Shown here one piece after another: positions 10,734 to 62,950 of a stretch of 64,000 bases of DNA. The stretch comes from Phyllobates terribilis (taxonomy: Eukaryota). The notes under the pieces are model-generated. The model saw only the letters and a program-made list of their open reading frames with translations. It did no database searches and had not been told where the DNA came from. Every line of letters begins with the position of its first letter. The first letter of the stretch is position 1. The DNA is taken from positions 1,612,001 to 1,676,000 of the forward strand of contig NW_027362797.1 of assembly GCF_046119375.1 (NCBI RefSeq). The letters run 5' to 3'. The position numbers and the translations under genes are program-made.

Positions 10734-10745
10734 GTACCCCCCCTT

Positions 10746-14812: not shown

Positions 14813-14860
14813 GATGGAACAGAAAAATCTTTCCTTAGAGAATTTGCAGGCTGGACTTAC

Positions 14861-15279: not shown

Positions 15280-15284
15280 GTTGC

Positions 15285-20257: not shown

Positions 20258-20275
20258 GGAGGTCCACTTCTCTTG

Positions 20276-21016
20276 TCATCGTTCAGACAGACGGGTGTCA
20301 ACCCGGATGCAATGCTTGATAAAATCATCCAGATCCGAAGGGGTCTCTCCACGGGCAAGTTCGTCCTTTACTGCACTAGAAAGTCCTCTTTTAAAGAAAG
20401 TTACCTTTGCTGCATTATTCCATTCGGTGTCGACGGCCCACCTCCTATACTCCATAGCATACTCTGCGACAGGACGTTTGCCTTGCCGTAATGCCAGCAA
20501 CGTTGATTCAGCTGTAGCTGCACGATTTGGGTCATCAAACATCTGCTGCATCGCTCGAATAAACTCATTCAAATTGTCTAAACGTGCGTCCCAAGTCTCA
20601 ATCAGAGGATTAGCCCAAGCGATCGCTTTGTGGGTTAACAGCATAATGATGCATAACACCTTTGACCTATCGGTCGGGAACTGATTAGCATGTGTATCGA
20701 ACAGGTAGCATTGATTCAAAAATCCACGAAATTTGTCTCGATCACCGCCAAAACGAAAAGGTGGTAGCTTGGGCGGCTTGGCAAACGCCGAGATGGGAGC
20801 TTGTCCTTCTAGCTGTGTAATTCGAGCAGTCAACACTTGTACCGCATTCTGCAGATCTTGGATAGCTTGTTGGCGATTCTGAACATTATGATCGCTCTGT
20901 ACAATAAATGCGTCTACCCGTGATTTTCCATTCATCTGTTCGGTGTGCAGACTGGATATTGCACCCTGCAGTTTTCTGACACGTGTCTCCATAGTTTCTG
21001 CCCCAGCGGCCTCCAT
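20276..21016 (-). pseudogene. Gypsy A gag (capsid-like) ORF
   Basis: PPKLPPFRFGGDRDKFRGFLNQC...LRQGKRPVAEYAMEYRR; CCHC knuckle [14 protein letters not shown] lies in the next frame. Confidence 0.9.
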
Positions 21017-21036
21017 TTTTGAGAGGCTGAGTATTC

Positions 21037-21779
21037 TGTCACGTTACTGGCGATACTGGACTGGAGGTCAGTGGCCGGAGCAGATGTGTACAGGTGACCT
21101 GACCGTGGGAAGACTTCTGGGGATGCAGTATATGGCGGTAGTAGTTCACCTTGTCAGCATATGCAGTATATGGCGGTAGTAGTTCACCTTGTCAGCAGAT
21201 GCAGTATATGGCGGTAGTAGTTCACCTTGTCAGCAGATGCAGTATATGGCGGTAGTAGTTCACTATGTCAGCAGATGCAGTATATGGCGGTAGTAGTTCA
21301 CTATGTCAGCAGATGCAGTATATGGCGGTAGTAGTTCACCATGTCAGCAGATGCAGTATATGGCGGTGGTAGTTCACTATGTCAGCAGATGCAGGGGCCC
21401 GCCCGAGCAAGGGCCGGCCGGGATCACACACGAGCACCAGGTTCGTTTAGGCAATAGAAGTTCGAGGTAGGAACAGCAGAGTCTTCACAAGAAGCAGGAA
21501 GGCGCCAGCAGAACACCTTCCAAATCAGGAGCTCAGATAATGCTTCACTCAGTTAGACTGAGCACCACAATACTCAGCAACAGGAAGCTGCACAGGGCCA
21601 GGTATATATAGCAGGTCCAATCAATCTCAATCAGGGCGGGAACAATCAGCAGGGCAGGTGATGATCTCTATCCCAGACGAAGTTCATATGGTTTCAGGCA
21701 GGAGTTAAACAAGTTCCGAATAACTCCACAGCAAAGGATCAGACTAGCAAGCAATGGGTCACAGGTTCAAATCCTAACA
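21037..21779 (-). repeat. Gypsy A 5' LTR (743 bp, seven 38-bp internal repeats)
   Basis: Direct repeat of 8341-9159; TATATATA box near 21603-21610. Confidence 0.96.
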
Positions 21780-24874: not shown

Positions 24875-25769
24875 ATTGCCACCTGTTCACATGGGCCAAT
24901 AAGTGAACCAAGCTTTTTTTTTTTTTTTACTATGACATGGGAGATGTTTCTGAATGAAGCCGGGACAACGTCATCCATAACTGTGTGGAGCGGGAAAGCT
25001 ATAGTGACAGGTGAAGCTACACCTGTACCACGTCAGCAGCACAGAGGAATTATGGGACTTCTATGAGGATCTATTCAGCGTGCGTGAACATTCTGACATT
25101 GTAACTGACATATCTGCTATGAATAAAGAAAAAGAAAGAAGGGGGCTGGAGGCAAGGAACCTAGATGGAAGCCCCAAATGACCGGGAGGGGACAGGAGGG
25201 TGTAATTTGAACTTAAAAGGATAGGGATTGGATATAGGTTGAAGGGCGGGCATTTGAGGGGGGGGGGTAGATAAAGCAGAAAGGGTGGGGTGAGAAACGG
25301 TCAGTTCAGAGAAGAAAGCATTGGAACGCGACAGGCCGGACACGAGAGTCGGGGTCTGGAAATCAAGGAAGGTCACAGACGGCAGGAAGGACCAGAGCCA
25401 GGATTGACGGAGGATGAGCAGCGGAGACGGCGGCGAGTGCTCAGGTCCCCCCTGGTGACGAGGAGGCCAGGGGCGCGGGCCTTGCGCTGCAGCAGGAGTC
25501 GGACGGATCAGAGAGTGGGGAGGATAGAGGTGAATCCAGGTGTCGGCAGGACACAGGAATTTCGGCTGGCAGGGACACAGCACCTGCGCAGCTGGGTGAG
25601 TTTGCTTCTATGTCTTGTTTGTCGCCCGCTGGGTCATTACTGTATGAGGGAGTTGATAGGCAGTCGGCGGGGCCCAGCGGGCAAAATATTAGGGGAGGTT
25701 GCGGGTCAGATATAATGGGTCTTAGAGACATTTTGTTTAATATGTTGCAATTTTTAGCTAGAATAGATA

Positions 25770-26697
25770 GTGGGGGGAGTTAATCAGGGTGGATTGGCAC
25801 CCGCGGCAGCGACGTGGGAGCCTAGTCAACCGGTGTCTTTGCAGGTGGGAAGCGAGATGGGCAGGTTGGGGGTCAGTGCAGATATTATACCTTCTGGGGT
25901 ATCGGTTTGTGTGCAGACAGAGAAGGACAAGGCGGATAATGTAAGACTGGACGATAGGGCAAAAGGGGAAGTTTATGTGTGCTTTGAGGGGCCGTTGGGG
26001 GCACACCTAAACAAAGAGGTAAAGGAAAAAATTTGGCGGGATGAGTACGTAGAGATTTTTTCCCTTCTTCCATTGGAAAAGTTTAACCTGGATAAGGGAA
26101 AAAGGGATGAGAGTAGAAAAGAGGAGGAGGAGAAGCGTAGGTGGAGGTTGATTCCTCAGACGTTTGTAAATTGGTTACAGGCTTTCGCAATATTGGCTAG
26201 TGTTATTGGGGAGAAAGCTCCTGATAATTGCTCAGGCTTATTCTGCTACCTTGATGCTTTCGGGGAGGCCCAGAGGACTTACGGGGGTCAGGCGTGGTTA
26301 AGATATGATGAGCAATTTCGGCAGAGAAAAGCAGTCCGACCGGAGATCAGATGGGATCAGAAAGACATTGGGTTGTGGTTGAGGGTTATGGCTCCAGTGA
26401 GGTATGGGCAGTCCTTTCACGGGGAACAACAGTAGCGGGAATCAATCAGCGGGACATGGGGGAGGTAGTCAGGGGGCGCAAAACATTAAAAAGGAAGCGG
26501 GAACTTGCTGGCAATTTAATGATGGCCAATGCAAGTACGGGAACTCCTGTAAATTCAAGCATGTGTGCTCCCATTGTAATGGAAGTTCACATCGAGCATC
26601 AAAATGCTTTAAGAGAGGAAAAGGAAAGCCGTTGGTGGTTACCGGTCAAGGGGGTTACTCCGGTGAGGGTTCACGCGATGGCCCCCTTTCTAAATAG
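25770..26697 (+). pseudogene. Ngaro/DIRS gag-like ORF with C-terminal Cys/His finger
   Basis: WLQAFAILASV...AWLRYDEQFRQR...WD; CWQFNDGQCKYGNSCKFKHVCSHCNGSSHRASKC after a frame break near 26430. Confidence 0.85.
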
Positions 26698-28251
26698 GTA
26701 TCCGGATCAGTTGAAGGCTAAAGTTATTGAGGATGGGTTTTTGGATGGTTTTAGAATACCAGCTCCTGATCATGTAGTTCCTTTTTCGGTTAAAAATTTA
26801 ATGTTGGCTCACCGTTATCCAGAGGTGGTTAAGACGAAGTTAGCTAAAGAGGTTGAATTGGGCAGGATGGCGGGACCGTTTCAGGAATTGCCTAGCATCA
26901 AGGTGATTATTTCACCGTTAGGAGTTGTGCCCAAGAAAGAGGTGAATAAGTTTCGCTTGATTCAGCATTTGTCATACCCTAAAGGGCTTTCAGTGAATGA
27001 TGGCATTGCGCAGGAGTTGTGTTCGGTCCAATATACATCTTTTGATGCGGCGGCACAATGGGTACGGAGGTATGGGCCAGGCTCGTTGCTAGCTAAGCCT
27101 GATATTGAGTCTGCTTTTAGGTTGTTGCCAGTTCACCCGGATAGCATCCCGTTGTTGGGATGTTTTTGGGAAGGGGAGTATTATGTTGATAGATGTTTGC
27201 CAATGGGTTGTTCAATTTCGTGTTCTTTGTTTGAAACTTTCAGTAGTTTTTTAGAATGGGTAGTGAAGGACCTGGCTTCTGTGAAGTCGGTCATTCATTA
27301 TTTGGACGACTTCTTGTTTATAGGTCCCCCGCAATCATTGTTGTGTAGGAATTTGTTAGGTACTATGGAGTGGGTGGCAGAGCATTTTGGCGTACCTTTG
27401 GCAGTAGAAAAGACGGAAGGCCCTTGCACAACCCTAAGTTTCCTGGACATTGTAATTGATACTGAAAGGATGGAGTGTCGGTTACCAGATGATAAATTGA
27501 TTTTGCTTAAACAGGAGGGCGATAGGATCCGGAGATTGCGCAAGGTGACACTGAAAGAGTTACAGTCACTGTTAGGGCGTTTGAATTTTGTGGGCAGGAT
27601 TATGCCAATGGGAAGAATATTTTGTCGCAGGTTGGCTGGAGCGACAGCAGGAGTGCGGGCTTCGCATCATTTTATTCGCTTAAATAAACAACACAAGGAG
27701 GATCTGAAAGTTTGGAAGTTGTTTCTGCAAAATTATAACGTAAGATCGTTAATACAGGAGGAGTTTTTGAACAGTTATGATTGTGAGATATTTACGGATG
27801 CTGCAGGAGGTGCTGGTTATGGGGCATACTGGAAAGGACGGCGGAGTGTAGGTGAGTGGCCGAATATGTGGAAAGAGAGGGGTCTTACGAGGAACTTGGC
27901 ATTTTTGGAGTTGTTTCCTATTGTTGTGGCGGTGAATATTTGGGGGGAGTGTTTTGCCAACAGGAGAATTCGGTTTCACTGCGATAACATGGGAGTGGTA
28001 TCGGTCATCAACAGTTTGTCGGCCTCGTCGCCGCCTGTAATTAGGTTGCTGAGGGAACTTGTACTTTGTTGCTTAAGTTGAACGCTTGGATTACAGCAGT
28101 CCTTGTGCCAGGTGTAAAAAATTCCATAGCAGATGCCTTGTCTCGTTTTCAGTGGGATCGTTTTCGGGCACTAGCACCAGAGGCAGAGGACGTGGGTCAA
28201 GAATGCCCTTCGCGGTTGTGGCAGATGGTTATGGAGGAGCGGGACTGTTAA
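26351..28251 (+). pseudogene. Ngaro/DIRS reverse transcriptase-RNase H
   Basis: ISPLGVVPKK, KPDIESAFR, LPMGCS, HYLDDFL, FTDAAGG, LELFPI, HCDN, then IADALSR in a shifted frame. Confidence 0.93.
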
Positions 28252-29114
28252 TACAAGAGTCTATCACAAGGCAGACCTGGGCATCATACGAGGCATCGTG
28301 GCGAGTATGGCAAAGTTGGATTCGGGAGTGGGGTGGAGTGGAGAGTGAGGTAGATAGAGAGACGGCTGTGTTGTTTCTGCTGGGAAGGGCGGCGGAGAGC
28401 GGATGGTCTGTTTCAAAAGTTGGCAAGTTTGTGGCAGGATTAGCATTTGGTTTTAAATTGCTGGGTACGAAGGATGTTACGAAGGCCTTTTTGGTGAAGC
28501 AAACTTTGAAGGGCTTTAGGAGAGGAGGTAAAGTGTTGGATAAACGTAGGCCGGTAACCTTTAGTATCTTGGAACGTTTGGGTTTGGTAATGGATAGGAT
28601 TTGTTGTTCATTTTTTGAGGCCACATTGTTTAGATTGGCTTTTGCATTGGCATTTTTTGGTGCACTGAGGATAGGTGAATTGGTGGCACCAAGCAGGAAT
28701 AAGGTTGGGGGTTTGTTTGCTGAGGATATGAGCGGTTGAAATGGGGGCATTGAATTTTGGATAAGGCGGGGGAAGACAGATCAATTGGGCAGAGGAAAAC
28801 GTGTGGTCTTAGGTGAGGTTAAGGGATCTTTGGTTTGTCCTAGGACATGTTTAATGGCTTACTGGCAGGTTTGCTCAGGGAGGAAGGGCCCATTATTGTG
28901 TCATGAAAATGGTGAATTTTTATCGCGTTTCCAGTTTATAGCAGTGTTTAAGAAGGGTATTGCTGAGTTGGGCCTTAGCCCTGAGGTATATGGGTCATAT
29001 TCCTTCAGAATTGGCGCGTCGTCGGAAGCGGATGGTTTGGGGTTAGGCAAGGAAGTGATAAAACGCATTGGGAGATGGAGTTCCGATCGATACCTGTCTT
29101 ATGTAAGGAATTAG
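28086..29114 (+). pseudogene. Tyrosine recombinase, one in-frame TGA at 28737-28739
   Basis: ALRIGEL (R), KTDQ (K), YSFRIGA (HxxR with H>Y), GRWSS, YLSYVR (Y). Confidence 0.92.
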
Positions 29115-40910: not shown

Positions 40911-41933
40911 TGTGTCACCCTGGCCTGGATGCCACAAATGTATAATAAAGCTGTGTCTGAGAGCAGGAGGGAGGTTCTCTGGTCAGGGACCATTAGCATG
41001 CTGCACATCCTGTCCCAGGCCAATAGGGGGAGCAGGCTGCCCCTATAAATGCTGGAAATGGGGGCAGGGTTAGAGAGAGCTGGACGACCTGTCTCTGAAG
41101 CGAGAGGCGTCCCAGAGAAGGGAGAGTCAGTTGAGCTGTAGCTGAGGAGGTCGTGTGGCAGTAGAAGAGCCACGAGCCAGGGACGGAAGGCGAGGTGAGC
41201 CTGTTCTGGCTGAGAGAGAAACTGATCTACCGGACTTTGGTGTCCGAGGCTGTTAGGATTCCAAGTCTTACAGCAAATAACCAGCCCGCAGGGGATTGTA
41301 TGTCCCTTGGCCTAAGAAGCCCAGAGGTTCCGCCACAGCAGAAGGGACCAGCAAAGTTGCACCAGGCCAAGAGTAGAAAGGGACCCAAGTTGCAAGCCAT
41401 ACGGGCGAGAAGACACGGCGAACTCAGGAACGTGGGCTGTTACACCACGAGGAGGGAAATAGCCAGAAAGAGCGCAGAGAGCACGGTAGGCCTTCACCCT
41501 CACCCTGACCAGGAGGGCTTCCCACTTGTTCTCAGACATCCAGGCCCCCTCATAGCCGGTACTGTTTTTGGGTCGTCTCACCTGTTCCAATAAAGACCCT
41601 GAACTGTTCAAGAGGCCTCCTTTTTCTGGCTATTGCGATCGGAATCATCCCCTCCATCATCCACTTACACTGCCCTGGGGCTACACTCCTCCCGTGGGGA
41701 GTTATACTACTCAGTGCTGCACACTTACATCTGCCCCAGCGGTCTGCACTGCAGCGGCGGTTATCCCTGACCGCAATCCACGGGTGGCGTAGTCGGAACT
41801 TCTCATACATATAACAAAAGACGGTTCCCCTTTAAGCCTGACACCCTGAGCACGAGACCGGGTCGCCACTACTACTCCCCGTCCGCATCCAGAGGCCCGG
41901 CCCTGAGTATCCCACGGCCCAGGGGGCGAGTCA
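40911..41933 (+). repeat. Gypsy C 5' LTR (1,023 bp)
   Basis: TG...CA; TATAAA near 41043, AATAAA near 41589. Confidence 0.96.
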
Positions 41934-41939
41934 GCTTTC

Positions 41940-41957
41940 TGGCGTAGTCGGCAGGAT
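41940..41957 (+). promoter_or_regulatory. Primer-binding site complementary to the tRNA-Ser 3' end
   Basis: TGGCGTAGTCGGCAGGAT is the complement of ATCCTGCCGACTACGCCA, the vertebrate tRNA-Ser 3' end. Confidence 0.92.
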
Positions 41958-42335
41958 TGTGACCAACTCGCCACAAACGGGTATTGCATGCCTAGAAAAG
42001 ACTTCATACTTACCTGAAAAAGAGGTTTCCCGCCATCCGGAGCCATTTCCCGCCATCTTCATCCGTTTCCCGCCATCCTCAGCCGTGTTCCCGCCATTGG
42101 ACGCCATCTTTAGGACGCCGCGCAGGAAGAAGAGAGGCGTGGACGTCCAAACCGCGCGAGACCCGAAGCCACGCCCTACACACCGACGCTGTGCAAGGTC
42201 CTGGAAAGAGTGAGAGCGACGCTGACGTCACCAGGACGCGACGCAAGGTCCTCGCCCGGAGCAGCACCAGCTGAGCCGCGGCCTACGGAAGAGGATCAAC
42301 GGAAGGTAGGCCACGCTTAACTAGGGGGGAGGAAG

Positions 42336-43328
42336 ATGACGGACGCGGAGGGACCTTCTACCACCAGCGTGGCTGCAGCAGCGGTGATGCCGTTCTCCAT
42401 GCCCTACATCCCCGGAGCAGCCTGGCTGCCCCAATACTCAGGGGAATCCCATACCTTAACTGACTTTAAAGAAAGACTACACAGTCTATTTAAAGTTTAT
42501 CCCCTGACAGAAGAACAGAAAGTGAGCATTCTGACGGGGCAGTTAACCGGCGCAGCCCAGCGGGAAGTGAAATCATGGTCAGATGAGGAGAAAAGGACTG
42601 TAAGGGACATTCTGACCCAGCTGCGGAGTACCTTTGACACCCGTACCTCAGCAGAGATCAAAATGCGGTTCTATGGCTGTAAACAGCGGGCACAGGACAG
42701 CATCAGAGACTATGCCCTAAATTTGCAGGAAGCCTTGAGAGCCATCAAACAAGCTGACCCTGTCAGCGTGCAGGATACAGATAAGCTACTAACAGAACAG
42801 TTCATAGAAGGTCTGCTGTCTAGTGCCCACAGAACCCAGCTGCGCCTCATGTTCTTTCAAAACCCTGGTCTAACCTTTGCCCAATTCAAGGACAGGGCAA
42901 TAAGGGTGCTCCGTGAACCTGCACTAAGTGGCGCTATAAACCCCCGGCGCCCTGCTCTCACCTATCACCAGGAGGCAGCGCCCTCTTCTATGGACTCTGT
43001 GGGGGCCGATGCACAGGCCCTGAACCAAGCCCCGTCGAAAGATCTGCATCACCAAGTCCAGGAGCTGACCAGGAGCGTCGCGGCGTTGACCAGGACTGTC
43101 CAGGCGTTACAAGTGGACCCGTCAAGACCCATCGAGTTGGCTTCAAGTCCGGAGGATGTCCCGTGGCGTCGACAGAGGAGAACCCCGTCGTTCCGAGGGA
43201 GGCCCACAGACCGCTACGCAGAGGATGGACAGCCCATTTGCCATCGATGCAGCCAGCCCGGACACATTTCCAGGTACTGTAATTTAAACGGGTCCAACCT
43301 GGGGCAGAGGGCCAAACCCCAGGCATAA
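42336..43328 (+). CDS. Gypsy C Gag (PNMA-like capsid plus CCHC knuckle)
   Basis: 330 aa open frame; CHRCSQPGHISRYC. Confidence 0.9.
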   Translation: MTDAEGPSTTSVAAAAVMPFSMPYIPGAAWLPQYSGESHTLTDFKERLHSLFKVYPLTEEQKVSILTGQLTGAAQREVKSWSDEEKRTVRDILTQLRSTFDTRTSAEIKMRFYGCKQRAQDSIRDYALNLQEALRAIKQADPVSVQDTDKLLTEQFIEGLLSSAHRTQLRLMFFQNPGLTFAQFKDRAIRVLREPALSGAINPRRPALTYHQEAAPSSMDSVGADAQALNQAPSKDLHHQVQELTRSVAALTRTVQALQVDPSRPIELASSPEDVPWRRQRRTPSFRGRPTDRYAEDGQPICHRCSQPGHISRYCNLNGSNLGQRAKPQA

Positions 43329-43387
43329 GATCACCAGGCCCTTACAATTGGCGTAATAAGTACGTTGGGGGGTGCCCGGTTTTACCC

Positions 43388-46300
43388 GTGGTGCTGGACG
43401 GTATCCCCATGAGTGCCTTGCTGGATACCGGGTCGCAAGTAACTACTATCCCTTATGTACTTTTTAAGCAGTATTGGACTGATGCTGATATAACACGGTA
43501 TCCAGACAATGACTTGAGCATCATCGCCAGTAATGGCTTGCCCGTGCCGCAGATGGGGTTCAAAGAGATGACCATTAAGATTGGTAAAGTTGAACTGTCA
43601 GCACAGGGGGTGATTATTGTGGACATTGACCGTCGTGAAAGTCACCCTAAAATAACTGTGGGTACTAACGTGATTGAAAATTGTCTTTCAGAGATAATTG
43701 TAATTTTACAGCAGGTGGCGGTGAATGCTAGTTCCAGCCAACAGAGAGTCCTCAACAAAGAGATAAAGGCTCTGATGAGGTGGCAGCAGGTAGAACTGTC
43801 TAGTGGTGAGATCGGTAGCGTAAGAATGAGTGACCCATTCCCCATTTCCATGCCTCCCAAAAGTGAAATGATGATCTGGTGTCGGACTGCAATCGGGTTG
43901 AGAGGCAGAGACTACCAAGCCATGGTAGAACCCGTGTACTCCGACAGCAGGCCCACCATTTTGACAGCCCGGGGGGTGGTTGATGTCCGTCATGGGAGGG
44001 TGCCCGTTCGCATCCTCAACATTGAGGAGAGGGAGGTACACTTACCCAGGTACGCTACACTTGCCAAACTGTTTGCTGTTGAACACAAAGCTATCAGGGC
44101 CGTGGAACCGTTGCCCCCATCTCCACAGGCGGAGGGTAATGGCTCCCAGAAACAAAAGGAGGACTGGTGCCAGAAACTCCATTTGGGTGCTGACTCCACT
44201 CCCCTGCACCAAAAACAAGGAGTCTACCGGGTGGTTCAGGAGTACGAGAGAATTTTTAGTAAGCACCCGCTAGACTTCGGCCGAGTAAAGGGAGTAGAAC
44301 ACCATATCCCCACGGGAAGCCACCCACCAATAAAAGAGAGACACAGACCTGTACCCCCTGCACATTATCAGAACGCAAAGGGCATGCTGAGAGAAATGAA
44401 AGAAGCTGGGGTCATTAGAGATAGCTGTAGCCCCTGGGCAGCCCCCTTGGTTCTGGTAAAAAAGAAAGACGGTACCATGAGAATGTGCGTGGACTATAGA
44501 CAAATCAACCGTATCACTCATAAAGACGCGTACCCGTTACCTAGGATAGAGAAGTCTTTGGCAGCCCTAAAATCAGCTAACATCTTCTCTACGTTGGACC
44601 TTACTAGTGGGTACTGGCAGGTTCCTGTGGCAGAGGCTGACAAGGAGAAGACCGCCTTCACCACCCCGATGGGATTGAGCGAATTCAACTGTATGCCCTT
44701 CGGGCTCTGCAACGCACCAGGGACCTTCCAGAGGCTGATGGAATGCTGTCTAGGGCACCGAAACTTCGAGACGGTCCTACTTTACCTGGACGACGTGATC
44801 GTCTATTCGAAGACCTACGAGGACCATCTAAAACACCTGGCAGAGGTGTTCGAAGCCCTGGCAGGCTATGGCCTGAAGGTGAAACCATCAAAGTGTCACC
44901 TGTTGAAACCGAAGGTCCAGTACCTAGGGCACGTGGTGAGTGCAGAAGGAGTAGCCCCCGACCCTGACAAAGTCACAGTAATCAAGAGCTGGCCAAGCCC
45001 CTCAAACATCAAAGAATTGAGGCAGTTCCTCGGGTTGGTGGGCTACTACCGAAGGTTCATCCCCGGGTTCACTAAGATGGCAGCTCGAATGCAGGACCTC
45101 CTGATAGGTCAATCCAAATCCAGAAGTCAAAACCACCCTTCAAGTGGGACAAGCCGGAAGAGGAGTCCTTCCGCCAGTTGAAGATGGCCCTCACGGGGGA
45201 TGAGATCCTGGCCTACCCCGATTATGGCCAGCCTTTTATCCTCCACACAGACGCCAGTAATGTGGGGCTGGGAGCCGTACTGTCACAAAACCAACAGGGC
45301 AGAGAAAGGGTGATCGCATATGCCAGCCGGAAGCTGAGGCCCACTGAAAGAAACCTGGAGAATTACAGCTCCTTCAAGCTAGAATTCTTGGCAGTGGTGT
45401 GGGCCGTCACAGAACGGTTTAAGCATTACCTGGCCTCCGCAAAGTTCACCGTGTACACGGACAACAACCCGTTGACACACCTGGACAATGCAAGACTAGG
45501 TGCCCTAGAGCAGCGGTGGATGGCGCGACTCTCGAATTATGACTTCACGATCAAGTACCGGGCAGGCAGAACCAATGCCAATGCTGACACCCTATCAAGA
45601 ATGCTTCACTTACCTGACGGAGGCGAAGACCCAGAAGAGCTGGAGGAGGTAGAACTCCCTGCGTTTCACCAGTATGGAGCAACTCAATACTCCCACCGCG
45701 TGAAGGAGGAAGACTTAACAACCATCATGATCAAGCCGAGACCCAAGATAGTGACCCTGCAATCCGCATGGTGAAAGACCTGCAGACCCGGGAAGATGCC
45801 CGTCTAGATCCGGATGCTCCAGAGGAAGCCAAGCAGCTATGGAAAGAGAAGAGCAGGCTGTTCCTCTATGAAGGTAAGCTGTGCAGGAGACTCGTCAACC
45901 ACCGGATTCATGAGCTGACCTGGCAAGTCGTGGTCCCAAGGCGAGATGCAGCTATGGTCCTGGAGGCTTACCATGACAGAGTGGGGCACTTCGGCTGGAA
46001 GAAACTGGAGTTCCTGCTAAGAGGATGGTTTTTCTGGATCGGCATGAGAGGGGCTGTAGAGAAGTGATGCAAAGACTGTGGCCCTTGTAATCTAAGGAGG
46101 AAGGACCGCACCAGCCAGAAGACACCCTTGAGGCCCATTGTCACCAAGCAGCCTCTTGAGCTGGTAGCTCTGGACCACGTCAAATTGGCTCCAAGCCGGT
46201 CAGGATACGTTTATGCCCTGACAATCGTGAACCACTATTCCCGATTTCTAGTGGTGGTCCCTGTAAAAGACTTGACAGCTCAAATGGCGGCCAGAGCCTT

Positions 46301-47429
46301 CCAGCAATATTTCTGCCTCCCACACGGGTATCCGGAACAGGTCCTGACAGACCAGGGTCCAGCGTTCGAGGCTGAAATCTTCCAAGAGTTCTGCAACCTC
46401 TATGGCTGTAAGAAGATTCGGACAACGCCTTACCACCCACAAACCAACGGGATGTGTGAGAAAATGAACAATATAGTCATTGATCTCCTGAAGACGTTGC
46501 CCCTGGAGGAACGCAGCCTGTGGCCAGAAAAACTGCTGGACCTGATAGACTTATACAATCATATCCCGGTGAATGCTACAAACTGCACCCCGGCTTACCT
46601 GATGCGAGCCAAACCAGGTAAGCTGCCCATAGACCTGGAGATGGGAGTCCTAACACCCGAGGACACCTCCCCAGATGCGGACTGGGATACGGAAAGGCGA
46701 CTGCAGTAGAAGAAGGTACAGGAGAGTGTGAAGAAGAGCCTGGCCCAGGTGAGAGAAAGGCAAGAGAGACTCTTCAACCAACACGCCCCTGCTGGTCCCC
46801 TAGAACCCGGTGAGCAGGTCCTGAAGCGATAGAGAAGGCTACACAAGCTGGACGACCAGTGGGAAAGGGAACCCTACACAGAACTGCAGTCTGATCACGA
46901 CAACCCGAAGGTGTGCGTGATCACCAAGGATGGAGGAGAAACCACTAGTACCGTCTCCAGAGATCACCTAAAAAGGTGCCCCGAGCAACTACAAAGTGCA
47001 GAAGAGGATCAAAGTGACCTTGAACCCGCAGAGGACAAGGAAGAGATGATCAGCACAGTTCTTGGGGAGTTCCCTCAGTCCTGGACTCGAATAAACAATG
47101 CCATAGTGGTACCCGTCCTACATTTCCTGCAACTAATTCAGCAACAACCTACACTAGAGCAGGAAGGGGAAGAAGAACAAGCAGCCCCAGAGGCAGAAGA
47201 GCCTGTACCAGCAGCCCAGGAGAATCAACCCTCTGCTGACAATGAGCCTGCCATGCCTGCGGTAAGCCAAAGGACCCGCAGACAGCTGCCTGCCCTGCCT
47301 GTAAATCTAGCCAATGACTGCACCCCGAGCGCTAGTGAGAAAAGCCAGGTTAGACCACCACCAGACAGTTGGTTACGTAGGTCAACCCGGAGCACTAAAG
47401 GGCAAATACCAGCTCGCTGGAGAGTGTAG
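43388..47429 (+). pseudogene. Gypsy C pol (PR-RT-RH-INT), several frameshifts and stops
   Basis: LLDTGSQVT, LDLTSGYWQ, YLDD, LHTDAS, YTDN, ALDHV/TDQG/EKMN, C-terminal LRRSTRSTKG tail. Confidence 0.94.
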
Positions 47430-47828
47430 GGTGTGATAGCAAATGTAAATAGCCTGCAAAATGTTGAATTGTTTAAAATGTAATTGCATGACCAGTAACT
47501 ACGCTTTTTCTCAGTTTCTTTCAGTTAATACATGGACTAACAGGTTATGAACTGTGAGTAACCGAGACTTTCCTGTAAATATGTTTGGAGCTTAACCAAC
47601 GGAAGGAACAAGGACTGTCAAAGACTTGGGGCTACGGCAGACTCCCACCTGGTTTGAGCTCCCCGTTGTTGTTGGTGAGATGGACACCTGGTCACAGACC
47701 ACACTGTGACCTTAAGAACTCAACCTGTGCGTCGTTTGCTTTTACTTGCCTAATAATGTTTTTATGGTCATGCATATTACTCTTGTTTTAAGCTTAGTCC
47801 CGGAGTACTAAGTTTTACTAGGGGGGAA

Positions 47829-48850
47829 TGTGTCACCCTGGCCTGGATGCCACAAATGTATAATAAAGCTTTGTCTGAGAGCAGGAGGGAGGTTCTCTGG
47901 TCAGGGACCATTAGCATGCAGCACATCCTGTCCCAGGCCAGTAGGGGGAGCAGGCTGCCCCTATAAAAGCTGGAAATGGGGGCAGGGTTAGAGAGAGCTG
48001 GACGACCTGTCTCTGAAGCGAGAGGCGTCCCAGAGAAGGGAGAGTCAGTTGAGCTGTAGCTGAGGAGGTCATGTGGCAGTAGAGGAGCCACGAGCCAGGG
48101 ACGGAAGGCGAGGTGAGCCTGTCCTGGCTGAGAGAGAAACTGATCTACCGGACTTTGGTGTCCGAGGCTGTCAGAATTCCAAGTCCTACAGCAAATAACC
48201 AGCCCGCAGGGGATTGTATGTCCCTTGGCCTAAGAAGCCCGGAGGTTCCGCCACAGCAGAAGGGACCAGCAAAGTTGCACCAGGTCAAGAGTAGAAAGGG
48301 ACCCAAGTTGCAAGCCATACGGGCGAGAAGACACGGCGAGCTCAGGAACGTGGGCTGTTACACCACGAGGAGGGAAATAGCCAGAAAGAGTGCAGAGAGC
48401 ACAGTAGGCCTTCACCCTCACCTTGACCAGGAGGGCTTCCCACTTGTTCTCAGACATCCAGGCCCCCTCATAGCCGGGACTGTTTTTGGGTCGTCTCACC
48501 TGTTCCAATAAAGACTCTGAACTGTTCAAGGGGCCTCCGTTTCCTGGCTATTGCGATCGGAATCATCCCCTCCATCATCCACTTACACTGCCCTGGGGCT
48601 ACACTCCTCCCGTGGGGAGTTATACTACTCCGTGCTGCACACTTACATCTGCCCCAGCGGTCTGCACTGCAGCTGCGGTTATCCCTGACTGCAATCCACG
48701 GGTGGCGTAGTCGGAACTTCCCATACATATAACAAAAGACGGTTCCCCTTTAAGCCTGACACCCTGAGCACGGGACCGGGTCGCCACTACTACTCCCCAT
48801 CTGCATCCAGAGGCCCGGCCCTGAGTATCCCACGGCCCAGGGGCAAGTCA
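47829..48850 (+). repeat. Gypsy C 3' LTR (1,022 bp)
   Basis: Direct repeat of the 5' LTR. Confidence 0.96.
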
Positions 48851-53346: not shown

Positions 53347-55405
53347 CTGAAAATAAAAGAGTTTATACAGGCATGAGATGAACTAAGTACACCCTGTTTG
53401 AAGTCTTTGGTTTTACATATCAGGATATAATAAAACATATGTGGTCCTTAGAAGATCTTCAAAGAAGGGAGATACAATCTGAGATGAACAACTCCATGTC
53501 ATTATTTATTTATCAAAAACTGTGAGAAAAATTAGATGCATCCCAAGAATCAATAGCTTGGTAAGCAAGCCCATGTGGATGAACAGTTAATTAATGGGAA
53601 CCTGTCAGTTCCGGTAGTCCTGTTAACCTGCAGATATAGGGTTAATCAGCAGGTCACTAGTGCTATGAAGGTGCCTGGCCACAGCACTGGAAGTGTGACA
53701 CCAGGAAGAAAATGAACTTTATTTCCCACAGAAGCTGCCGGCTGTCAGTCATGTGACGCACCCCCTGGGCCATGTGCAAGGGATACCCGGAGCCGGATCT
53801 GGATAGGGGTAGTAGTCCTTGTGGCGGTGACCCGGTCCGTGCCCAGGGTGTCAAACTAAGTGGCAGTCTATGGCAGTAGATGTTAACTTGATTGTCGACT
53901 ACGCCACCCGTTGAGTGCGGCTTTGACGCCGCCGCTGCAGAGCAGTCCGCTGAGGCCGGTGGTATATGTGCAGCAGTGATGGTATAACCCCCAACGGGAG
54001 GGGTATGGCCTCAGGGCAGCAGGTGTGGATGATGGGGGTTGTGATGATGCAGAAAGAAGACTCAGAGTCAGGAGATGCAGTTCAGGGTTTTTACTTACTG
54101 GTGTTCTTTTGGTCACTCTGGCCTTGAGTGACCACCCGAGCCGTGCTGCGTCCACCAGGTCCTGGACTCGGCTAACCCCCAGGCGATTCCGGAGCGTGGT
54201 CCTGAGCTCCCTTCTGACTCTCTCTCTCTCTCTCTGGCTGTTCCCACCAGGGATCCACCTGTGTCCGGCTCCCTCGGGTCTCTTGTTGGTTAAACCTTCC
54301 CTGGCTTCCCTGACCCTATGCTCGGTGTGCCATTCTGGTGGATTTGGTGAGGGTCGTGGCAGATCCTGCCCACGACCTCCGGTTCCTGGCTAAGGTTTGT
54401 TTTGGCCTCTGCCAGCTTGGGATCCGGTACCCTTGTCCGCCAACCCTTCACCCTTTTGTCTTTATTCTGGGGTCTTGGGGTTCCCTTCTTGTCTTTCTCT
54501 CTGGGTCCTTCTTTTCTCCTCTCTCCCTCTGCAGGCTTGGCTCTGGAGCTGGGCCCAGCCGGAGCCACAGCTCCCTGTCAGCCCTCCTGGCTGAGCTCCT
54601 CTGCTCTGCTCCTCAGGCTAAAAAGACCCTGTCCTAAGATGGTGCCCACCATATATACTCCCTCTATGTGTGAGCCCAGGTGACTAGCACCCAATGAGCT
54701 CCTAGCTTTACCCAGACTACTCCCCCTATCTGCCCCTACACTACTGGGATGTTCCACCCCCCTCCCACTCCAGCCAGGGACAGACGCTGTCGTACCTGCA
54801 CATATACTGGTGGGAGTACCGTAGTTCTGTCCCCCGGAAATGGGATGTATGTAGTGCATGCAGCCTACTGAGTCCTGGTCCACACTCCATCCTTACCCGG
54901 GAGTGGAATACCACACCTCTGGCTTGAGGTGTAATACCCCTGTAGCAGCCGAATCCTCAGGGTGCTACATTCCCCCCTGGTAAATCACAGCACGTCCTCG
55001 GGCTGTAAAAGAGCAAAATATCCAAAAACATACAAAATTTTTGCAAAAACATCATAAACATATAAAACACTATATATATATCAGCAGCATAATACTCTTC
55101 ATATAAAACATTTTTGACCTCTGGCCACTTGTGCAAATTGTGACCAGGTAAGTGCCACAGTCTCTGGTAGAAAAAACAGTTTCCTATAAAACCGGTAGGG
55201 GGCACTTTAGGAAGCGCAACTATATACAAAGGGATATGGCCGCTCTCAGTCCTCGGCCAGTGGGGAAAAAGGGATGGCTGCTCACAGTCCTCAGCCTGTG
55301 GGGAGATGGGACACACTGGAACAGTTCACTGGTCCCAACGGGGACTATAATGGTAACAGTTATTGTACCTTCACGGGTAACTATTTACAGTGCTCCTACT
55401 GTACA

Positions 55406-57007
55406 TCAGTGGCGACGTCCTCCAGCTCCTTCCTCCGTGTACCCTTCAGACCCGTCCGGGTCCTCTTGCTCCTCCTGACACCTCAGCTCTTTCTCTGTCA
55501 GTCGGTGTACATGAAGGGCATAGGGTCCTTTGGCACATTGGTGCCGGGTGAAGGTGACCTCATCACCCAGGTAAAGGTCACGACCTCTGTGTCCCTCCGG
55601 TAGGTGGGACTCGACATCTCTTCTGGTCACGAAGACGTCGCCGGGGGTGTGATGATCTCTGATGAAGACCCAAACGTGCTGCAGTTGGAATTTGATTACA
55701 GTCCCGGTGGCACGGGGACCGTGGGCTGCACGGGGGTTCCTTCGGGTCCGGCTCTTTTGTTCTGCACTCTTTACTTGCAGCCGCTCCTCGCGAACCCGTC
55801 TCTCTCTCCGTTCTCGCTCAAAGACTTCCAACTGCTGGCGGCAGCACTCTGCACGCTCCGCTGCAGCCGCCCGGGTCTCTTGAGTGAACCCGATGAGGTC
55901 TCCTCCAGTGGGGTCCCACGCAAACTGCGCTTCCTCCAGCGAGAGTGGGGTGATCTTGGCGGGCGCCGGAGCCGGGATCAGGGGCTCATCCAGGGGCCTT
56001 TCCTTCCGGAGTCGGGGATGGTAGTACTCCGGTGGCCACTCAAAGGGCTGCCCATCCGGGCAAGTGTGTTGGGCAAACAAGTCTTCACCCAGGTGCGGCA
56101 CAGTGGAAGTTGAGGGCGCGGTGGTGGCAGCGGCGCCCGGGATCACTAGGCCTTGCGACCAGGCTTGGGGTACCCTGAAGGTAAAGGGCACCGTGAAGAC
56201 GGCGGCGCCCGGGGGCACTCGGCCTTGCGACCAGGCCGGTGGCGTCTCCTGCTTGGCCGCGCTCAGGGTTGAGGCGCGTGACGTCACAGGGGGCGTGGTC
56301 GCGGCTCCTGCTTGGGGCCTAGTCTGGAGCGGTAGCGGTGCGGCAACGGGCACGATCAGTGGGGCTTCGGGCTCTGCGACGGGGAGTGGGGGTAGGCTTA
56401 CGGTGGCTGGGCTTGGGGTAGTGACGTCCCCTTTACTTGCCTCCGTCTCTTCAGCTCCCTCTGCGGCGTCGTCTCCGGCCTCCGTCCCTTCTGCATCCTC
56501 TTCAGGGGCAGGCGTGCTCCTCGTTGCAGGTGGTGTGCTCCGCTGGCGGGTTCCAGCCTGCTGGGCCATCTCCCTGCTCCACTCCGTCAGTGTTTCTCGC
56601 TGCACCTGGGCCATCCTCCGTGCGAGGCCCTCCAGCGCGGTCTGTGCACGCTCCCGGTCTCGGGGGAGCTGTGCCAGGATCTCCACCAGGTCTTGTGGAG
56701 TGGTAGCTTGCATCAGGCTCCTGACCACAGGGTCGGTGCTGCCTGCCTCTCCCTCCATCTCCGGGTACGGCTCCTCCAGACTTCTCCAAGCTGCTCCCAT
56801 CTTCTCTCTTTTGTTCTGTCTCCGCCCACATTGAGGGCGGTCCTCGGGCAACTTGGTGATTGTCAGTTCCAGGGGCAGACCCCCCACGCTGATGGACATC
56901 TCAATCATTGCAGTCTCTGCTGTTGGGGGCGGTCTTCGTTTTTGGCGCCATTCTTGGTCCTGGCCCACGATGGGAGGTGGCCTCTTGCCACCCTCTGGCA
57001 CGCCCAT
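55406..57007 (-). CDS. 533-aa coiled-coil/Pro-rich protein with C-terminal cold-shock domain (~55499-55711)
   Basis: ATGTVIKFQLQHVWVFIRDHHTPGDVFVTRRDV...RDLYLGDEVTFTRHQCAKGPYALHVHRL follows the CSD pattern (GTVKWF, RNP1 GFI, RNP2 DVFV, V.F, KG..A.V); start codon uncertain (in-frame ATG also at 57283). Confidence 0.8.
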   Translation of the reverse strand: MGVPEGGKRPPPIVGQDQEWRQKRRPPPTAETAMIEMSISVGGLPLELTITKLPEDRPQCGRRQNKREKMGAAWRSLEEPYPEMEGEAGSTDPVVRSLMQATTPQDLVEILAQLPRDRERAQTALEGLARRMAQVQRETLTEWSREMAQQAGTRQRSTPPATRSTPAPEEDAEGTEAGDDAAEGAEETEASKGDVTTPSPATVSLPPLPVAEPEAPLIVPVAAPLPLQTRPQAGAATTPPVTSRASTLSAAKQETPPAWSQGRVPPGAAVFTVPFTFRVPQAWSQGLVIPGAAATTAPSTSTVPHLGEDLFAQHTCPDGQPFEWPPEYYHPRLRKERPLDEPLIPAPAPAKITPLSLEEAQFAWDPTGGDLIGFTQETRAAAAERAECCRQQLEVFERERRERRVREERLQVKSAEQKSRTRRNPRAAHGPRATGTVIKFQLQHVWVFIRDHHTPGDVFVTRRDVESHLPEGHRGRDLYLGDEVTFTRHQCAKGPYALHVHRLTEKELRCQEEQEDPDGSEGYTEEGAGGRRH

Positions 57008-57241
57008 AATGGCGTCCGCTCTGCCAGGGCGGGAAATCTTCTGAAATGGCGGGAACCGCTTCCCAGTGGCGGGAAACTCTGTGGATGGCGGGAAAAGACT
57101 GCAGAAGGCGGGCAAATGGCGGGAAACGATCCGAGATGGCGTCCGATGGCGGGGACCCTCCGGAATTGGCGGGAGACTTCTTTTTACGGTAAATATGAAC
57201 TTTTCTTCAGGCACGCAGTACCCGGTGGTTGCGGGCACGTT

Positions 57242-57259
57242 ATCCTGCCGACTACGCCA
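57242..57259 (-). promoter_or_regulatory. tRNA-Ser primer-binding site of element D
   Basis: TGGCGTAGTCGGCAGGAT on the minus strand, 4 nt from the 5' LTR. Confidence 0.92.
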
Positions 57260-59192
57260 AAGTTGACGCACCCCCTGGGCCATGTGCAAGGGATACCCGG
57301 AGCCGGATCTGGATAGGGGTAGTAGTCCTTGTGGCGGTGACCCGGTCCGTGCCCAGGGTGTCAAACTAAGTGGCAGTCTATGGCAGTAGATGTTAACTTG
57401 ATTGTCGACTACGCCACCCGTTGAGTGCGGCTTTGACGCCGCCGCTGCACAGCAGTCCGCTGAGGCCGGTGGTATATGTGCAGCAGTGATGGTATAACCC
57501 CCAACGGGATGGGTATGGCCTCAGGGCAGCAGGTGTGGATGATGGGGGTTGTGATGATGCAGAAAGAAGACTCAGAGTCAGGAGATGCAGTTCAGGGTTT
57601 TTACTTACTGGTGTTCTTTTGGTCACTCTGGCCTTGAGTGACCACCCGAGCCGTGCTGCGTCCACCAGGTCCTGGACTCGGCTAACCCCCAGGCGATTCC
57701 GGAGCGTGGTCCTGAGCTCCCTTCTGACTCTCTCTCTCTCTCTGGCTGTTCCCACCAGGGATCCACCTGTGTCCGGCTCCCTCGGGTCTCTTGTTGGTTG
57801 AACCTTCCCTGGCTTCCCTGACCCTATGCTCGGTGTGCCATTCTGGTGGATTTGGTGAGGATCGTGGCAGATCCTGCCCACGACCTCCGGTTCCTGGCTA
57901 AGGTTTGTTTTGGCCTCTGCCAGCTTGGGATCCGGTACCCTTGTCCGCCAACCCTTCACCCTTTTGTCTTTATTCTGGGGTCTTGGGGTTCCCTTCTTGT
58001 CTTTCTCTCTGGGTCCTTCTTTTCTCCTCTCTCCCTCTGCAGGCTTGGCTCTGGAGCTGGGCCCAGCCGGAGCCACAGCTCCCTGTCAGCCCTCCTGGCT
58101 GAGCTCCTCTGCTCTGCTCCTCAGGCTAAAAAGACCCTGTCCTAAGATTGTGCCCACCATATATACTCCCTCTATGTGTGAGCCCAGGTGACTAGCACCC
58201 AATGAGCTCCTAGCTTTACCCAGACTACTCCCCCTATCTGCCCCTACACTACTGGGATGTTCCACCCCCCTCCCACTCCAGCCAGGGACAGACGCTGTCG
58301 TACCTGCACATATACTGGTGGGAGTACCGTAGTTCTGTCCCCCGGAAATGGGATGTATGTAGTGCATGCAGCCTACTGAGTCCTGGTCCACACTCCATCC
58401 TTACCCGGGAGTGGAATACCACACCTCTGGCTTGAGGTGTAATACCCCTGTAGCAGCCGAATCCTCAGGGTGCTACACATGCAGACATGCCTGGATCAAT
58501 TACAGTCACCACTTAGAGCACTGAGAGCGGTGTCTGTAAAAACACCCTGACACTGACTGAGAGCCACACTGAACTGTGCACAGTAGAGCTGGCTGTCAGT
58601 CAGTGCCGGGATGTGCTTACAGTCGTCGCTCTCAGTGACCGGTGACTGTAATTGCTCTGAGTATGCCGGTTCTCTGCAAGCCGGCAGCTCCTGGATGAAG
58701 TAAAGTTCATTTTCTCCCGGGTGCTGCACTTTCAGTACTGCGGCCGGGCACTCTCATAGCACTATTATCCTATACAATAACCCTTTATCTGCAGATTAAT
58801 AGCATTATTGGACCTTACAGGTTCCCTTTTAGTTCATATTATTAGCAGCATATGGCTGCTGCAAAACGTATTAATTCCAATTAAAGCAACAAAGGTGTAC
58901 TTAATCTTTCACACACTGCTTTTCTATGTTGGCCTAGTTTTTGTCAAATACATAATGTCACAGAGTTATTTATCAGGAGTTGTTGTTTCCTGAGGTTGTA
59001 TTTCCTTAACTTTAAGACATTCAAAGCACCAAATGCTTTTTTATTTTGTCCTGATGTAAATCCATGGAATTCAAAGAGGGTGTACTTAGTTCTTCTCAAT
59101 GAGTATATGAGATGTATGATATCCCAAGTAGCAGCTTTTTACCATGTATACACGTTATCTTATGAAGCTGCTGGAAGTGATGTGAAACCTAC

Positions 59193-60726: not shown

Positions 60727-61486
60727 ATCAGTGAATATGAATAGCGGTACCAGAGCGCCAATAACAGGGCAAAAATATTAAAAGGACTGATTTATTAATA
60801 CACACACAACGCGTTTCGGTGGACACAGCCACCTTCATCAGGTGTGACAAGCAGCAAACAATTGATCCTTATATACATTTGACTAGGTATACAATTACTT
60901 AAAAGGGGCGGGGCCAGATACAGAGTAATACCTCTATATTAACCCCTTGAGTTCATATATGCTCAATAGAGTAAAAAGGATTGTTATAAAATAATGCCTA
61001 ATGAAGCATATAGGGTTCTTATAAAAAGGATTCGCTGTAAAAAAAAACAACTTGTGAATCCTATAATCTTAATACTTCATAGGATATATTGTCATCTACC
61101 ACCCTATATTTTAGATTATATAAAAAAAAAATAATAATAATTTTTACATACAACATAAAACAATGCATAAATATAAAGTTATAAAATTACAATCAGTTTC
61201 TACCATTGTAATTAGGAAAAGTAGACGAAGAAAGGAAAGAGAAAAAAAAAGAGAAAAAAATAAAAAAATAAAAAAATAAAAAAATTCCAAAAAAATCCCC
61301 AAAAAAATCGCCCAAAAAAATAAATAAAAAAAATAAAAATTTTTTCTTTAAATTTTTTCTCCTTTCTCTCTCTCCTCCCTCCTCCCCTCCCTCTCTCCTT
61401 TCCCCTCTTCCCTCCTTCTCTCTCTCCTCCCCCCTCCTCCTCAATATAAAAGATATATATAATAAATTTGCTAAAATATGAAAACA
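60727..61486 (-). repeat. Left arm of ~760-bp near-perfect inverted repeat (partner 62192-62950)
   Basis: Reverse complement of 62192-62950 with only a few differences. Confidence 0.95.
60803..60846 (-). ncRNA. Minimal type I hammerhead ribozyme (minus-strand copy)
   Basis: Exact reverse complement of 62831-62874. Confidence 0.82.
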
Positions 61487-61494
61487 CATAGACT

Positions 61495-61745
61495 CGATAG
61501 ATAGACTCGAACGCCCCCATATATAGATTTGCATAACTGGGGGCAAACCTCGTCCCCATCGCGCAGCCCCTCAGCTGCCGATACATCACCCCCTCAAAAG
61601 AAAATACATTGTTCTCAAGAATGAAAGTTATACCCCTCAATAAAAAGTTTTTTTGAGGATCTTGTAAGTTAGGGTCCTCATCTAGGAATATTTTAATTGC
61701 CTGTAAACCCAGAAGACCGAACCATTCAGCTCCTATTAGCAATAA
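61495..61745 (-). pseudogene. Inverted PLE reverse transcriptase fragment
   Basis: ILENNVFSFEGVMYRQLRGCAMGTRFAPSYANLYMG. Confidence 0.9.
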
Positions 61746-62186
61746 TGTTATAAATGTAATGTCCCTAAATGCTTATGCTGTCAATCCATTGATAACGGAG
61801 CCAAAACATTCGTCTCTGCGGTCACTGGAGAGATATATCCCATTCGCTTTAGACTTACATGTCAGTCCTCATATGTGATCTATCTGCTCCAGTGCACCTG
61901 CGGCCTGCAATACATTGGCCGCACTATCCAGGAAATGCACTCAAGATTAAATAAACATCGCCAAAACATTAGAAACGGCTTTCCCCTACATAGTGTTTCT
62001 AATCATTTCTTAAAAGAACATCAAAAAAATCCTAATAACCTAAAACTAACTATCATTGATCATATAGTTGATACACACCCTGATAGACTAAATCGTCTCA
62101 TTACATGTGAAAATTATTGGATTTTCAAAATGGGAACCTTGTCTCCTGAAGGTTTGAACCTTAATATAGAGAAGACAACTTTTTAA
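61746..62186 (+). pseudogene. PLE zinc-binding linker and GIY-YIG endonuclease
   Basis: CYKCNVPKCLCC...LTCQSSYVIYLLQCTCGLQYIGRT...HRQNI...SVSNHF...ENYWIFKMGTLSPEGLN. Confidence 0.92.
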
Positions 62187-62191
62187 ATAAT

Positions 62192-62950
62192 TGTTTTCAT
62201 ATTTTAGCAAATTTATTATATATATCTTTTATATGGAGGAGGAGGGGGGAGGAGAGAGAGAAGGAGGGAAGAGGGGAAAGGAGAGAGGGAGGGGAGGAGG
62301 GAGGAGAGAGAGAAAGGAGAAAAAATTTAAAGAAAAGTTTTTTATTTTTTTTATTTATTTTTTTGGGGGATTTTTTTGGGGATTTTTTTTGGAATTTTTT
62401 TTTTTCTCTTTTTTTTTCTCTTTCCTTTTTTTTCTCTTTCCTTTCTTCGTCTACTTTTCCTAATTACAATGGTAGAAACTGATTGTAATTTTATAACTTT
62501 ATATTTATGCATTGTTTTATGTTGTATGTAAAAATTATTATTATTATTTTTTTATATAATCTAAAATATAGGGTGGTAGATGACAATATATCCTATGAAG
62601 TATTAAGATTATAGGATTCACAAGTTTTGTTTTTTTTTACAGCGAATCCTTTTTATAAGAACCCTATATGCTTCATTAGGCATTATTTTATAACAATCCT
62701 TTTTACTCTATTGAGCATATATGAACTCAAGGGGTTAATATAGAGGTATTACTCTGTATCTGGCCCCGCCCCTTTTAAGTAATTGTATACCTAGTCAAAT
62801 GTATATAAGGATCAATTGTTTGCTGCTTGTCACACCTGATGAAGGTGGCTGTGTCCACCGAAACGCGTTGTGTGTGTATTAATAAATCAGTCCTTTTAAT
62901 ATTTTTGCCCTGTTATTGGCGCTCTGGTACTGCTATTCATATTCACTGAT
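62192..62950 (+). repeat. Right arm (PLE 3' UTR / pseudo-LTR) with polypurine and poly-T tracts
   Basis: Follows the EN stop codon directly; inverted copy at 60727-61486. Confidence 0.95.
62831..62874 (+). ncRNA. Minimal type I hammerhead ribozyme
   Basis: cacac-CTGATGA-a-ggtgg(ctgtgt)ccacc-GAAA-CGCG-TT-gtgtg: full core, 5-bp stems I and II, palindromic ACGCGT stem III. Confidence 0.85.

Follow-up and report, generated by a model that had tools for sequence, protein, structure and literature searches.

A pol-less LTR retrotransposon family of poison frogs whose only gene encodes a predicted cold-shock-domain protein

The window analysed here is a stretch of 64,000 nucleotides from Phyllobates terribilis (contig NW_027362797.1, positions 1,612,001 to 1,676,000, forward strand). 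On its minus strand it contains a long terminal repeat (LTR) retrotransposon whose internal region, of about 2.3 kb, carries a single open reading frame (ORF) for a protein with a predicted cold-shock domain (CSD). A preliminary description, made from the sequence alone, had drawn attention to this element and proposed that it replaced gag-pol with a nucleic-acid-binding protein while borrowing enzymes in trans. In the following list of its parts, partners are the related Ty3/Gypsy gag-pol elements considered below; TSD, PBS, PPT and UTR stand for target-site duplication, primer-binding site, polypurine tract and untranslated region, and RNP1 is an RNA-binding motif of CSDs.

53750..53753, no strand: TSD CATG, left flank, read at the element end
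53754..54969, minus: 3' LTR, from LTR self-alignment
54970..54978, minus: PPT, with a near-identical tract in the partners
54979..55405, minus: 3' UTR, alike to partner 3' regions in short patches only
55406..57007, minus: sole ORF, 533 aa, from ATG 57007 (conserved across subfamilies) to the stop at 55406
55493..55711, minus: predicted CSD, aa 433-505, from Pfam and fold; dN/dS about 0.1; V at two RNP1 positions in this copy, G in dispersed copies
55739..55873, minus: long charged helix immediately N-terminal to the CSD, aa 379-423, holding a conserved Cys
55886..55918, minus: conserved W-D-x-x-G-x-x-L-x-G-F motif before this helix
55958..56551, minus: Pro/Ala-rich disordered linker, aa 153-350, from model and dN/dS
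56540..56656, minus: first long helix, aa 118-156, moderately constrained
57008..57241, minus: leader with short repeats, common to partners up to the ATG; likely a packaging signal
57242..57259, minus: PBS, 18 nt, putative tRNA-Ser type, after a 4-nt spacer
57264..58477, minus: 5' LTR, with a TATA-like motif at about 58160-58165; its proximal 870 nt are specific to CSD elements
57264..57605, minus: distal part of the 5' LTR, putative U5, the sole LTR part common to partners (75-85%)
58478..58481, no strand: TSD CATG, right flank, read at the element end

The two LTRs, which read TGTAGC...GCGTCA and so end in TG...TCA, are identical at 1209 of 1214 aligned bases (99.59%) and differ by one further 2-nt indel. 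The anatomy given in the preliminary description (LTRs of about 1.2 kb and 99.6% identity, a CATG TSD, an 18-nt PBS and a PPT) is thereby confirmed, and with these parts the element qualifies as a non-autonomous LTR retrotransposon. Between its LTRs, Pfam detected no protease (PR), reverse transcriptase (RT), RNase H (RH) or integrase (INT), the CSD being the only coding domain. The ORF, read from the letters as uninterrupted and at least 533 residues long, has exactly this length from ATG 57007; it lies within an open frame of 704 codons and is the only long ORF on the sense strand of the element. Another in-frame ATG is located upstream, within U5, at 57283. Leader lengths preserve the frame of the N-terminal extension which would run from this ATG through the PBS (14 of 14), while its pN/pS is 0.62-1.23. 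The serine label of the PBS presumes general tRNA anatomy. At four loci (L287-L290), the PBS is followed by T-arm and variable-arm sequence, once with a TGA anticodon, which looks like over-copying of the primer tRNA; ARAGORN found a whole tRNA gene at none of the four. A second PBS-like motif, conserved in CSD elements and partners, is present inside U5 (57407-57416 and 53897-53906).

On the window protein, Pfam detected the CSD alone, at 20.8-24.7 bits, below the cut-off of 27 bits for this family (PF00313). The seven sister or related proteins scanned score 32-40 bits, above this cut-off. Neither a pol or gag family nor a CCHC pattern was detected in the ORF, and the earlier statement that protease, RT, integrase, capsid and CCHC motif are lacking is thus borne out by Pfam and pattern search. 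AlphaFold predicts two long helices (residues 118-156 and 379-423), a Pro/Ala linker that is disordered, and a barrel of five strands, with a mean predicted local distance difference test (pLDDT) of 66.5 for a model of the C-terminal 194 residues. The full-length model, which is of low confidence (45.5), shows two long helices and disorder, and no capsid fold. Using Foldseek, the barrel resembles the CSDs of CspA, YBX1/2, UNR and Lin28, those of CspA and YBX at about 2 Å, identity to Y-box proteins in the structure matches being about 28%. The layout first read from the letters, with two helical stretches, a Pro/Ala-rich linker and a C-terminal CSD, is therefore found again by AlphaFold and Pfam. 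Collectively, the modelled oligonucleotide-binding (OB-fold) barrel and the above-cut-off scores of sister copies confirm that the ORF ends in a true cold-shock domain. In the ESM Atlas, the C-terminal part matched CSD clusters only, under 0.9, and residues 1-170 gave no usable match. A homodimer prediction for helix plus CSD scored 0.01.

The preliminary description had cautioned that the RNP1 glycines read V in this copy. This holds true and is specific to the window insertion. Among the 30 top loci, a changed RNP1 glycine occurs in 11, all on contig C37 or C810, while the remaining 19 all read GWGF; in a position-ordered sample, GWGF was found at 24 of 30 loci, the other six having no motif match. 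The C37 matches are segmental repeats of one insertion, in which a neighbouring integrase recurs at a near-constant offset and, in two fetched repeats, the flanks are the same. As the change is confined to these two contigs and the motif elsewhere is GWGF, the window holds a slightly mutated member of a family with canonical RNP1. The window is part of a large unit (L157, L158) that recurs some ten times along C37 and also on a few small contigs, with both LTR elements at near-constant offsets.

A 24-nt pattern spanning the PPT/LTR junction has 26,427 exact matches in the genome (10.6 Gb), while the control has none. At the first 30 of these loci on contig C1, the ORF was always found upstream of the junction, and integrase or pol at none. 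Thirteen copies were paired with both LTRs: in 11, the LTRs are 99.4-99.9% identical and each copy has its own 4-bp TSD; of the other two, one has a pair 92% identical and one a mismatched pair. Since LTRs within pairs are nearly identical while those of paired and sampled copies differ by 10-26% from the window LTR, many subfamilies have recently been active. The family has thus been amplified as such, by independent insertions, and the ORF, far from being confined to one copy, is present in thousands. As a rough figure which assumes full length, one subgroup alone would represent about 120 Mb (26,427 x 4.7 kb), or about 1% of the assembly. The closest named annotated proteins come from Phyllobates terribilis, Ranitomeya variabilis, R. 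imitator and Anomaloglossus baeobatrachus, which belong to three dendrobatoid genera. Among the 150 matches listed in a protein search, six are single-stretch, all from these four frogs; most others are multi-stretch, and the three looked up are dinoflagellate proteins. Word-index protein searches returned two Phyllobates proteins only. An annotated frog R3HCC1 model (P0002) starts with a helix-plus-CSD piece of the family, by gene-model error or exonisation, and head-to-tail arrays of CSD elements with common LTRs are found at L074, L160 and contig C5, 132.53 Mb. Contigs from four runs guessed to be RNA cover the element; DNA of a 26,000-copy repeat could do so too, and they were not used.

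The LTR-PBS junction occurs 61,766 times in the genome, and its first 30 loci comprise 16 elements of CSD type and 14 of gag type. Thirteen whole gag-pol elements were recovered. Their LTRs are 97.2-99.9% identical, the TSDs that were read are of 4 bp, and several elements have open gag and pol frames. These partners are Ty3/Gypsy elements with a PNMA-type gag and the domain order PR-RT-RH-INT. Their LTR end and PBS are identical to those of the CSD elements and their PPT is near-identical; both kinds have in common the final 290-340 nt of the LTR and, beyond it, PBS and leader repeats right to the ATG of the CSD ORF, but not the proximal 870 nt of the CSD-element LTR. None of the 13 has a CSD match, and the ORF is accordingly not one that a related gag-pol element already carries. 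From these shared signals, the CSD elements and the gag-pol elements very probably stand in the relation of passengers to helpers. In a U5/leader tree of 36 rows (22 passengers and 14 helpers; L159 was left out for a pattern mismatch), both kinds interleave and four changes between them are needed, a single passenger clade being rejected by the approximately unbiased (AU) test (p=2.4e-44). One passenger with a helper-like U5 end (L086/L123) has LTRs 99.7% identical. Repeated exchange of U5, PBS and leader during co-packaging appears to be the simplest reading. The shared and exchanged signals suggest that partner enzymes mobilise the passengers; as regards the proposal of borrowing in trans, the gag-pol families which may lend the enzymes can now be named, while their use by the passengers is inferred. 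A relative from the partner clade is a neighbour in the window.

40911..48850, plus: Ty3/Gypsy gag-pol element with PNMA-type gag, the same PBS, U5/leader about 71% alike and pol over several frames

This neighbour was rejected as the specific helper, since its U5 is the most divergent (67%) and its pol falls into several frames.

The window ORF was aligned with twelve natural ORFs, to which it is 39-79% identical. The ratio of nonsynonymous to synonymous divergence (dN/dS) was estimated by the pairwise Nei-Gojobori method for 13 pairs, which share branches and are not independent; several of the loci were picked by Pfam CSD score, which favours intact domains. For the CSD, dN/dS is 0.07-0.14 in 10 of the 13 pairs and 0.21-0.31 in two deep pairs, one pair being saturated, with a high synonymous divergence in the domain (0.7-2.0). 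The conserved motif and the helix before the CSD give 0.09-0.37, the Pro/Ala linker 0.38-0.76 and the first 80 codons 0.22-0.78, with intervals often reaching 1. For calibration, the same ratio is 0.12-0.20 in partner gag and 0.065-0.073 in partner pol. These estimates indicate that the CSD is under strong purifying selection between pol-less subfamilies and is constrained as partner gag is. A ratio near 1, which the preliminary description had named as telling against its proposal, was not found, the CSD standing at about 0.1 between subfamilies.

A Y-box gene is the likely donor of the domain. A 20-row profile, two members of which are very divergent, gives YBX1 47 bits and bacterial Csp 37-38 bits, while CARHSP1, Lin28 and CSDE1 are all under 19 bits. 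One divergent member of the family (L191) aligns gap-free to YBX1. It belongs to three old CSD copies (L191-L193, contig C4, 791.48-791.52 Mb), of which the two read keep the RNP2 His and which are possibly closest to the captured form. Like YBX1 and YBX2 (FRGY2), the best vertebrate match, the frog CSD has the fold, the RNP1 G-x-G-F and the D-x-F-V; unlike Y-box proteins, it does not keep the first-strand Trp and the RNP2 His, and the ORF has no Y-box tail. Other older derivatives (L040, L053, L055, L161-L177) have an ORF made of a Met, the CSD and a short tail, with a PBS unlike that of the window element. Intronless retrocopies of the host gene CSDE1/UNR, several with long open frames, are located on contig C1 at 734.44 Mb (L031-L036).

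Similar cargo is found elsewhere in the genome. A young second lineage (L219, L220, L242, L243, L247) has LTRs with the ends TGTAAT...TTACA, 98-99.7% identical, the same PBS type and one ORF with a central divergent CSD; it has no pol and no DNA similarity to the window element. Two older lineages (L245, L255) have other LTR ends and PBS sequences; between the LTRs, they too hold a CSD but lack pol. Judged by their LTR ends, at least three further LTR lineages thus carry a CSD without pol.

Known systems resemble this family in part. TR-GAG elements and the wheat families RLG_Quinta and RLG_Cereba are likewise non-autonomous LTR elements with one ORF which need an autonomous partner, but their ORF is a Gag with or without protease, as far as the available account goes (bioRxiv 10.64898/2026.03.01.708851), while the frog ORF has no detectable Gag homology and a host-type CSD at its end. 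The retained Gag, capsid and zinc knuckle by which such Gag-only elements are recognised are not found in the window ORF. High-copy pairs of passenger and partner, as in the frog, are formed by Dasheng/RIRE2 in rice and SNRE/SNARE in soybean, and LTR swapping, named in the title of the SNRE/SNARE paper, is akin to the exchange proposed here; these are plant elements, however, and the account available of that work mentions no selected RNA-binding cargo (PMC3701649). Repeated capture of the same domain (Pfam00313) is reported for 46 endogenous retroviruses (ERVs) of birds. These are retroviruses identified by their RT, and in the part of the report available neither a pol-less family nor a selection test appears (PMC12287698). 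The window element has none of the retroviral RT, gag, pol and env of CSD-carrying ERVs; in the frog family the CSD ORF is the only gene, the clade is Ty3/Gypsy and copies number tens of thousands. LINE-1 ORF1p, a retroelement protein which binds RNA and acts as a chaperone, shares with the frog protein a disordered N-terminus, a long helix and an RNA-binding domain. It differs by its RNA recognition motif (RRM) and C-terminal domain (CTD), by its proven trimer and by belonging to an autonomous non-LTR element, and the analogy is one of layout (PMC5940361). In the open literature, repeat databases being outside the search, no description was found of a pol-less LTR family with a selected CSD as sole gene, and the accessible part of a frog-wide survey of transposable elements does not mention cold shock (PMC12822217). 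The earlier remark that no such LTR family is described is thus upheld for the pol-less, CSD-only family but not for CSD capture as such, which is known from the bird ERVs (PMC12287698). The novelty lies in a host-type CSD as the sole, selected gene of passengers, the precedents covering parts only.

Most non-autonomous LTR elements either have no coding capacity or retain a Gag, while here the only gene encodes a host-type RNA-binding domain. This would imply that a step of the retrotransposon cycle, such as RNA protection, germline localisation or selective packaging, can be won by a passenger's own protein. The family also makes it possible to test why CSDs are captured by vertebrate retroelements, a capture which in bird ERVs is noted and not explained. 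Annotation by homology would be apt to overlook elements without pol, and much of the repeat DNA in poison frogs has been reported as unclassifiable (PMC12208295).

The reading that we favour, with some reserve, is that the protein has a cis-acting RNA-binding role, as RNA chaperone or packaging aid. The passenger, a recently inserted non-autonomous Ty3/Gypsy element, would contribute the promoter, PBS and PPT together with a leader like that of its helpers, and its ORF, with a CSD derived from a host Y-box gene, would have taken the place of all sequence beyond the shared leader. The particle and the enzymes for reverse transcription and integration of passenger RNA would come from partner Gag and Pol, while U5, PBS and leader would be swapped repeatedly during co-packaging. 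Soon after translation, the helix-plus-CSD protein would bind its own RNA and protect it or steer it into gag-pol particles. The benefit would go mainly to the encoding RNA, because the freely shared product of tens of thousands of copies could hardly stay at a dN/dS of 0.1. Host YB-1 has been reported to support HIV RNA metabolism and virion output (PMC6040738). A wider claim is possible, though we doubt it: a satellite-like class of passengers in at least four poison-frog LTR lineages would have as its sole gene a captured Y-box CSD on an ORF1p-like helical stalk, and the protein would give its own RNA precedence over helper RNA in filling helper Gypsy particles and would have helped to inflate these giant genomes.

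That the protein serves the entire clade in trans, as an RNA shield against piRNAs or decay or as a translation booster, in a mutualism like that of Quinta/Cereba, seems unlikely. Selection would then act since an active source locus gains in the cell where it is expressed. The near-equal numbers of passengers and gag-pol elements in the sample (16 to 14), the recurrence of such cargo in several LTR lineages and the mutualistic, Gag-donating passenger reported in wheat (bioRxiv 10.64898/2026.03.01.708851) speak for it, yet none of the 13 partners has kept the gene, and a constraint as tight as that of partner gag would be hard to maintain for the shared product of many copies. Quite improbable is a satellite-type competitor, whose protein would attach to helper Gag, or to the leader that helper RNA has in common with the passengers, and redirect particles to passenger RNA. 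Helpers do share leader and PBS, passengers equal or exceed them in the sample, and the W-D motif and helix are constrained like the CSD, as expected of an interaction surface; the helpers, however, are young and abundant too.

The position of the ORF after the shared leader, where gag would stand, and its order of helices first and nucleic-acid-binding domain last would also suit a highly diverged Gag of TR-GAG or MaLR type, which builds its own particle with a CSD in place of the zinc-knuckle nucleocapsid. We give this very little chance: profile-profile comparison (hhalign) with partner Gag yields a probability of 0.2%, from shallow alignments of limited sensitivity, there is no gag or PNMA match in Pfam and no capsid fold in the model, at E<0.001 viral structures return only CSD matches, and derivatives with the CSD alone exist. 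A likeness of the linker to a gag N-terminus, seen by eye, was dropped, the stretch being absent from deeper subfamilies and yielding nothing by hhalign. There is hardly any likelihood that the passengers are deletion derivatives of an autonomous Gypsy element with an extra CSD ORF which now hitch-hikes. In its favour, gag-pol runs directly into the 3' end of a passenger CSD at one old locus (L248), but this junction, likely a helper-passenger recombinant, is unique, integrase lying upstream in one of 30 relatives, the query itself, and selection acts between pol-less subfamilies. An autonomous family with both pol and CSD was not found among the sampled junction loci, the 13 partners and the 30 relatives of L248.

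Several points weigh against the favoured account. The junction samples are the first loci of contig C1 and no random draw. U5 identity to the nearest partner is about 80% only, and no single helper is singled out. Some U5 rows are single LTRs and possible post-insertion chimeras, L084/L118 being one; such recombination accounts for some rows, and not for those whose paired LTRs agree. In the family, the Phe residues of RNP1 and RNP2 are retained, but the first-strand Trp and the RNP2 His, which we take to be base-stacking or RNA-contacting positions in YBX1 and Csp, are replaced, and RNA specificity may therefore differ. With a profile that leaves out the two divergent members, E. coli CspA scores slightly above YBX1 (41 versus 39 bits), so the donor is not proven. 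In a CSD tree of 75 columns, all 35 element CSDs form one group against five host rows with weak support (89/50), the host rows being degenerate and including only one, degenerate, YBX-like row.

Elsewhere in the window, other retroelements were labelled by reading translations at 10311-15281, 17291-21043 and 25767-28739; among these three are a Gypsy element with 99.8% identical LTRs, inserted in an ORF resembling those of DNA transposons, the remnant of a second Gypsy and an element of DIRS-like type. A long inverted repeat, with arms up to 100% complementary, extends over positions 60727-62950.

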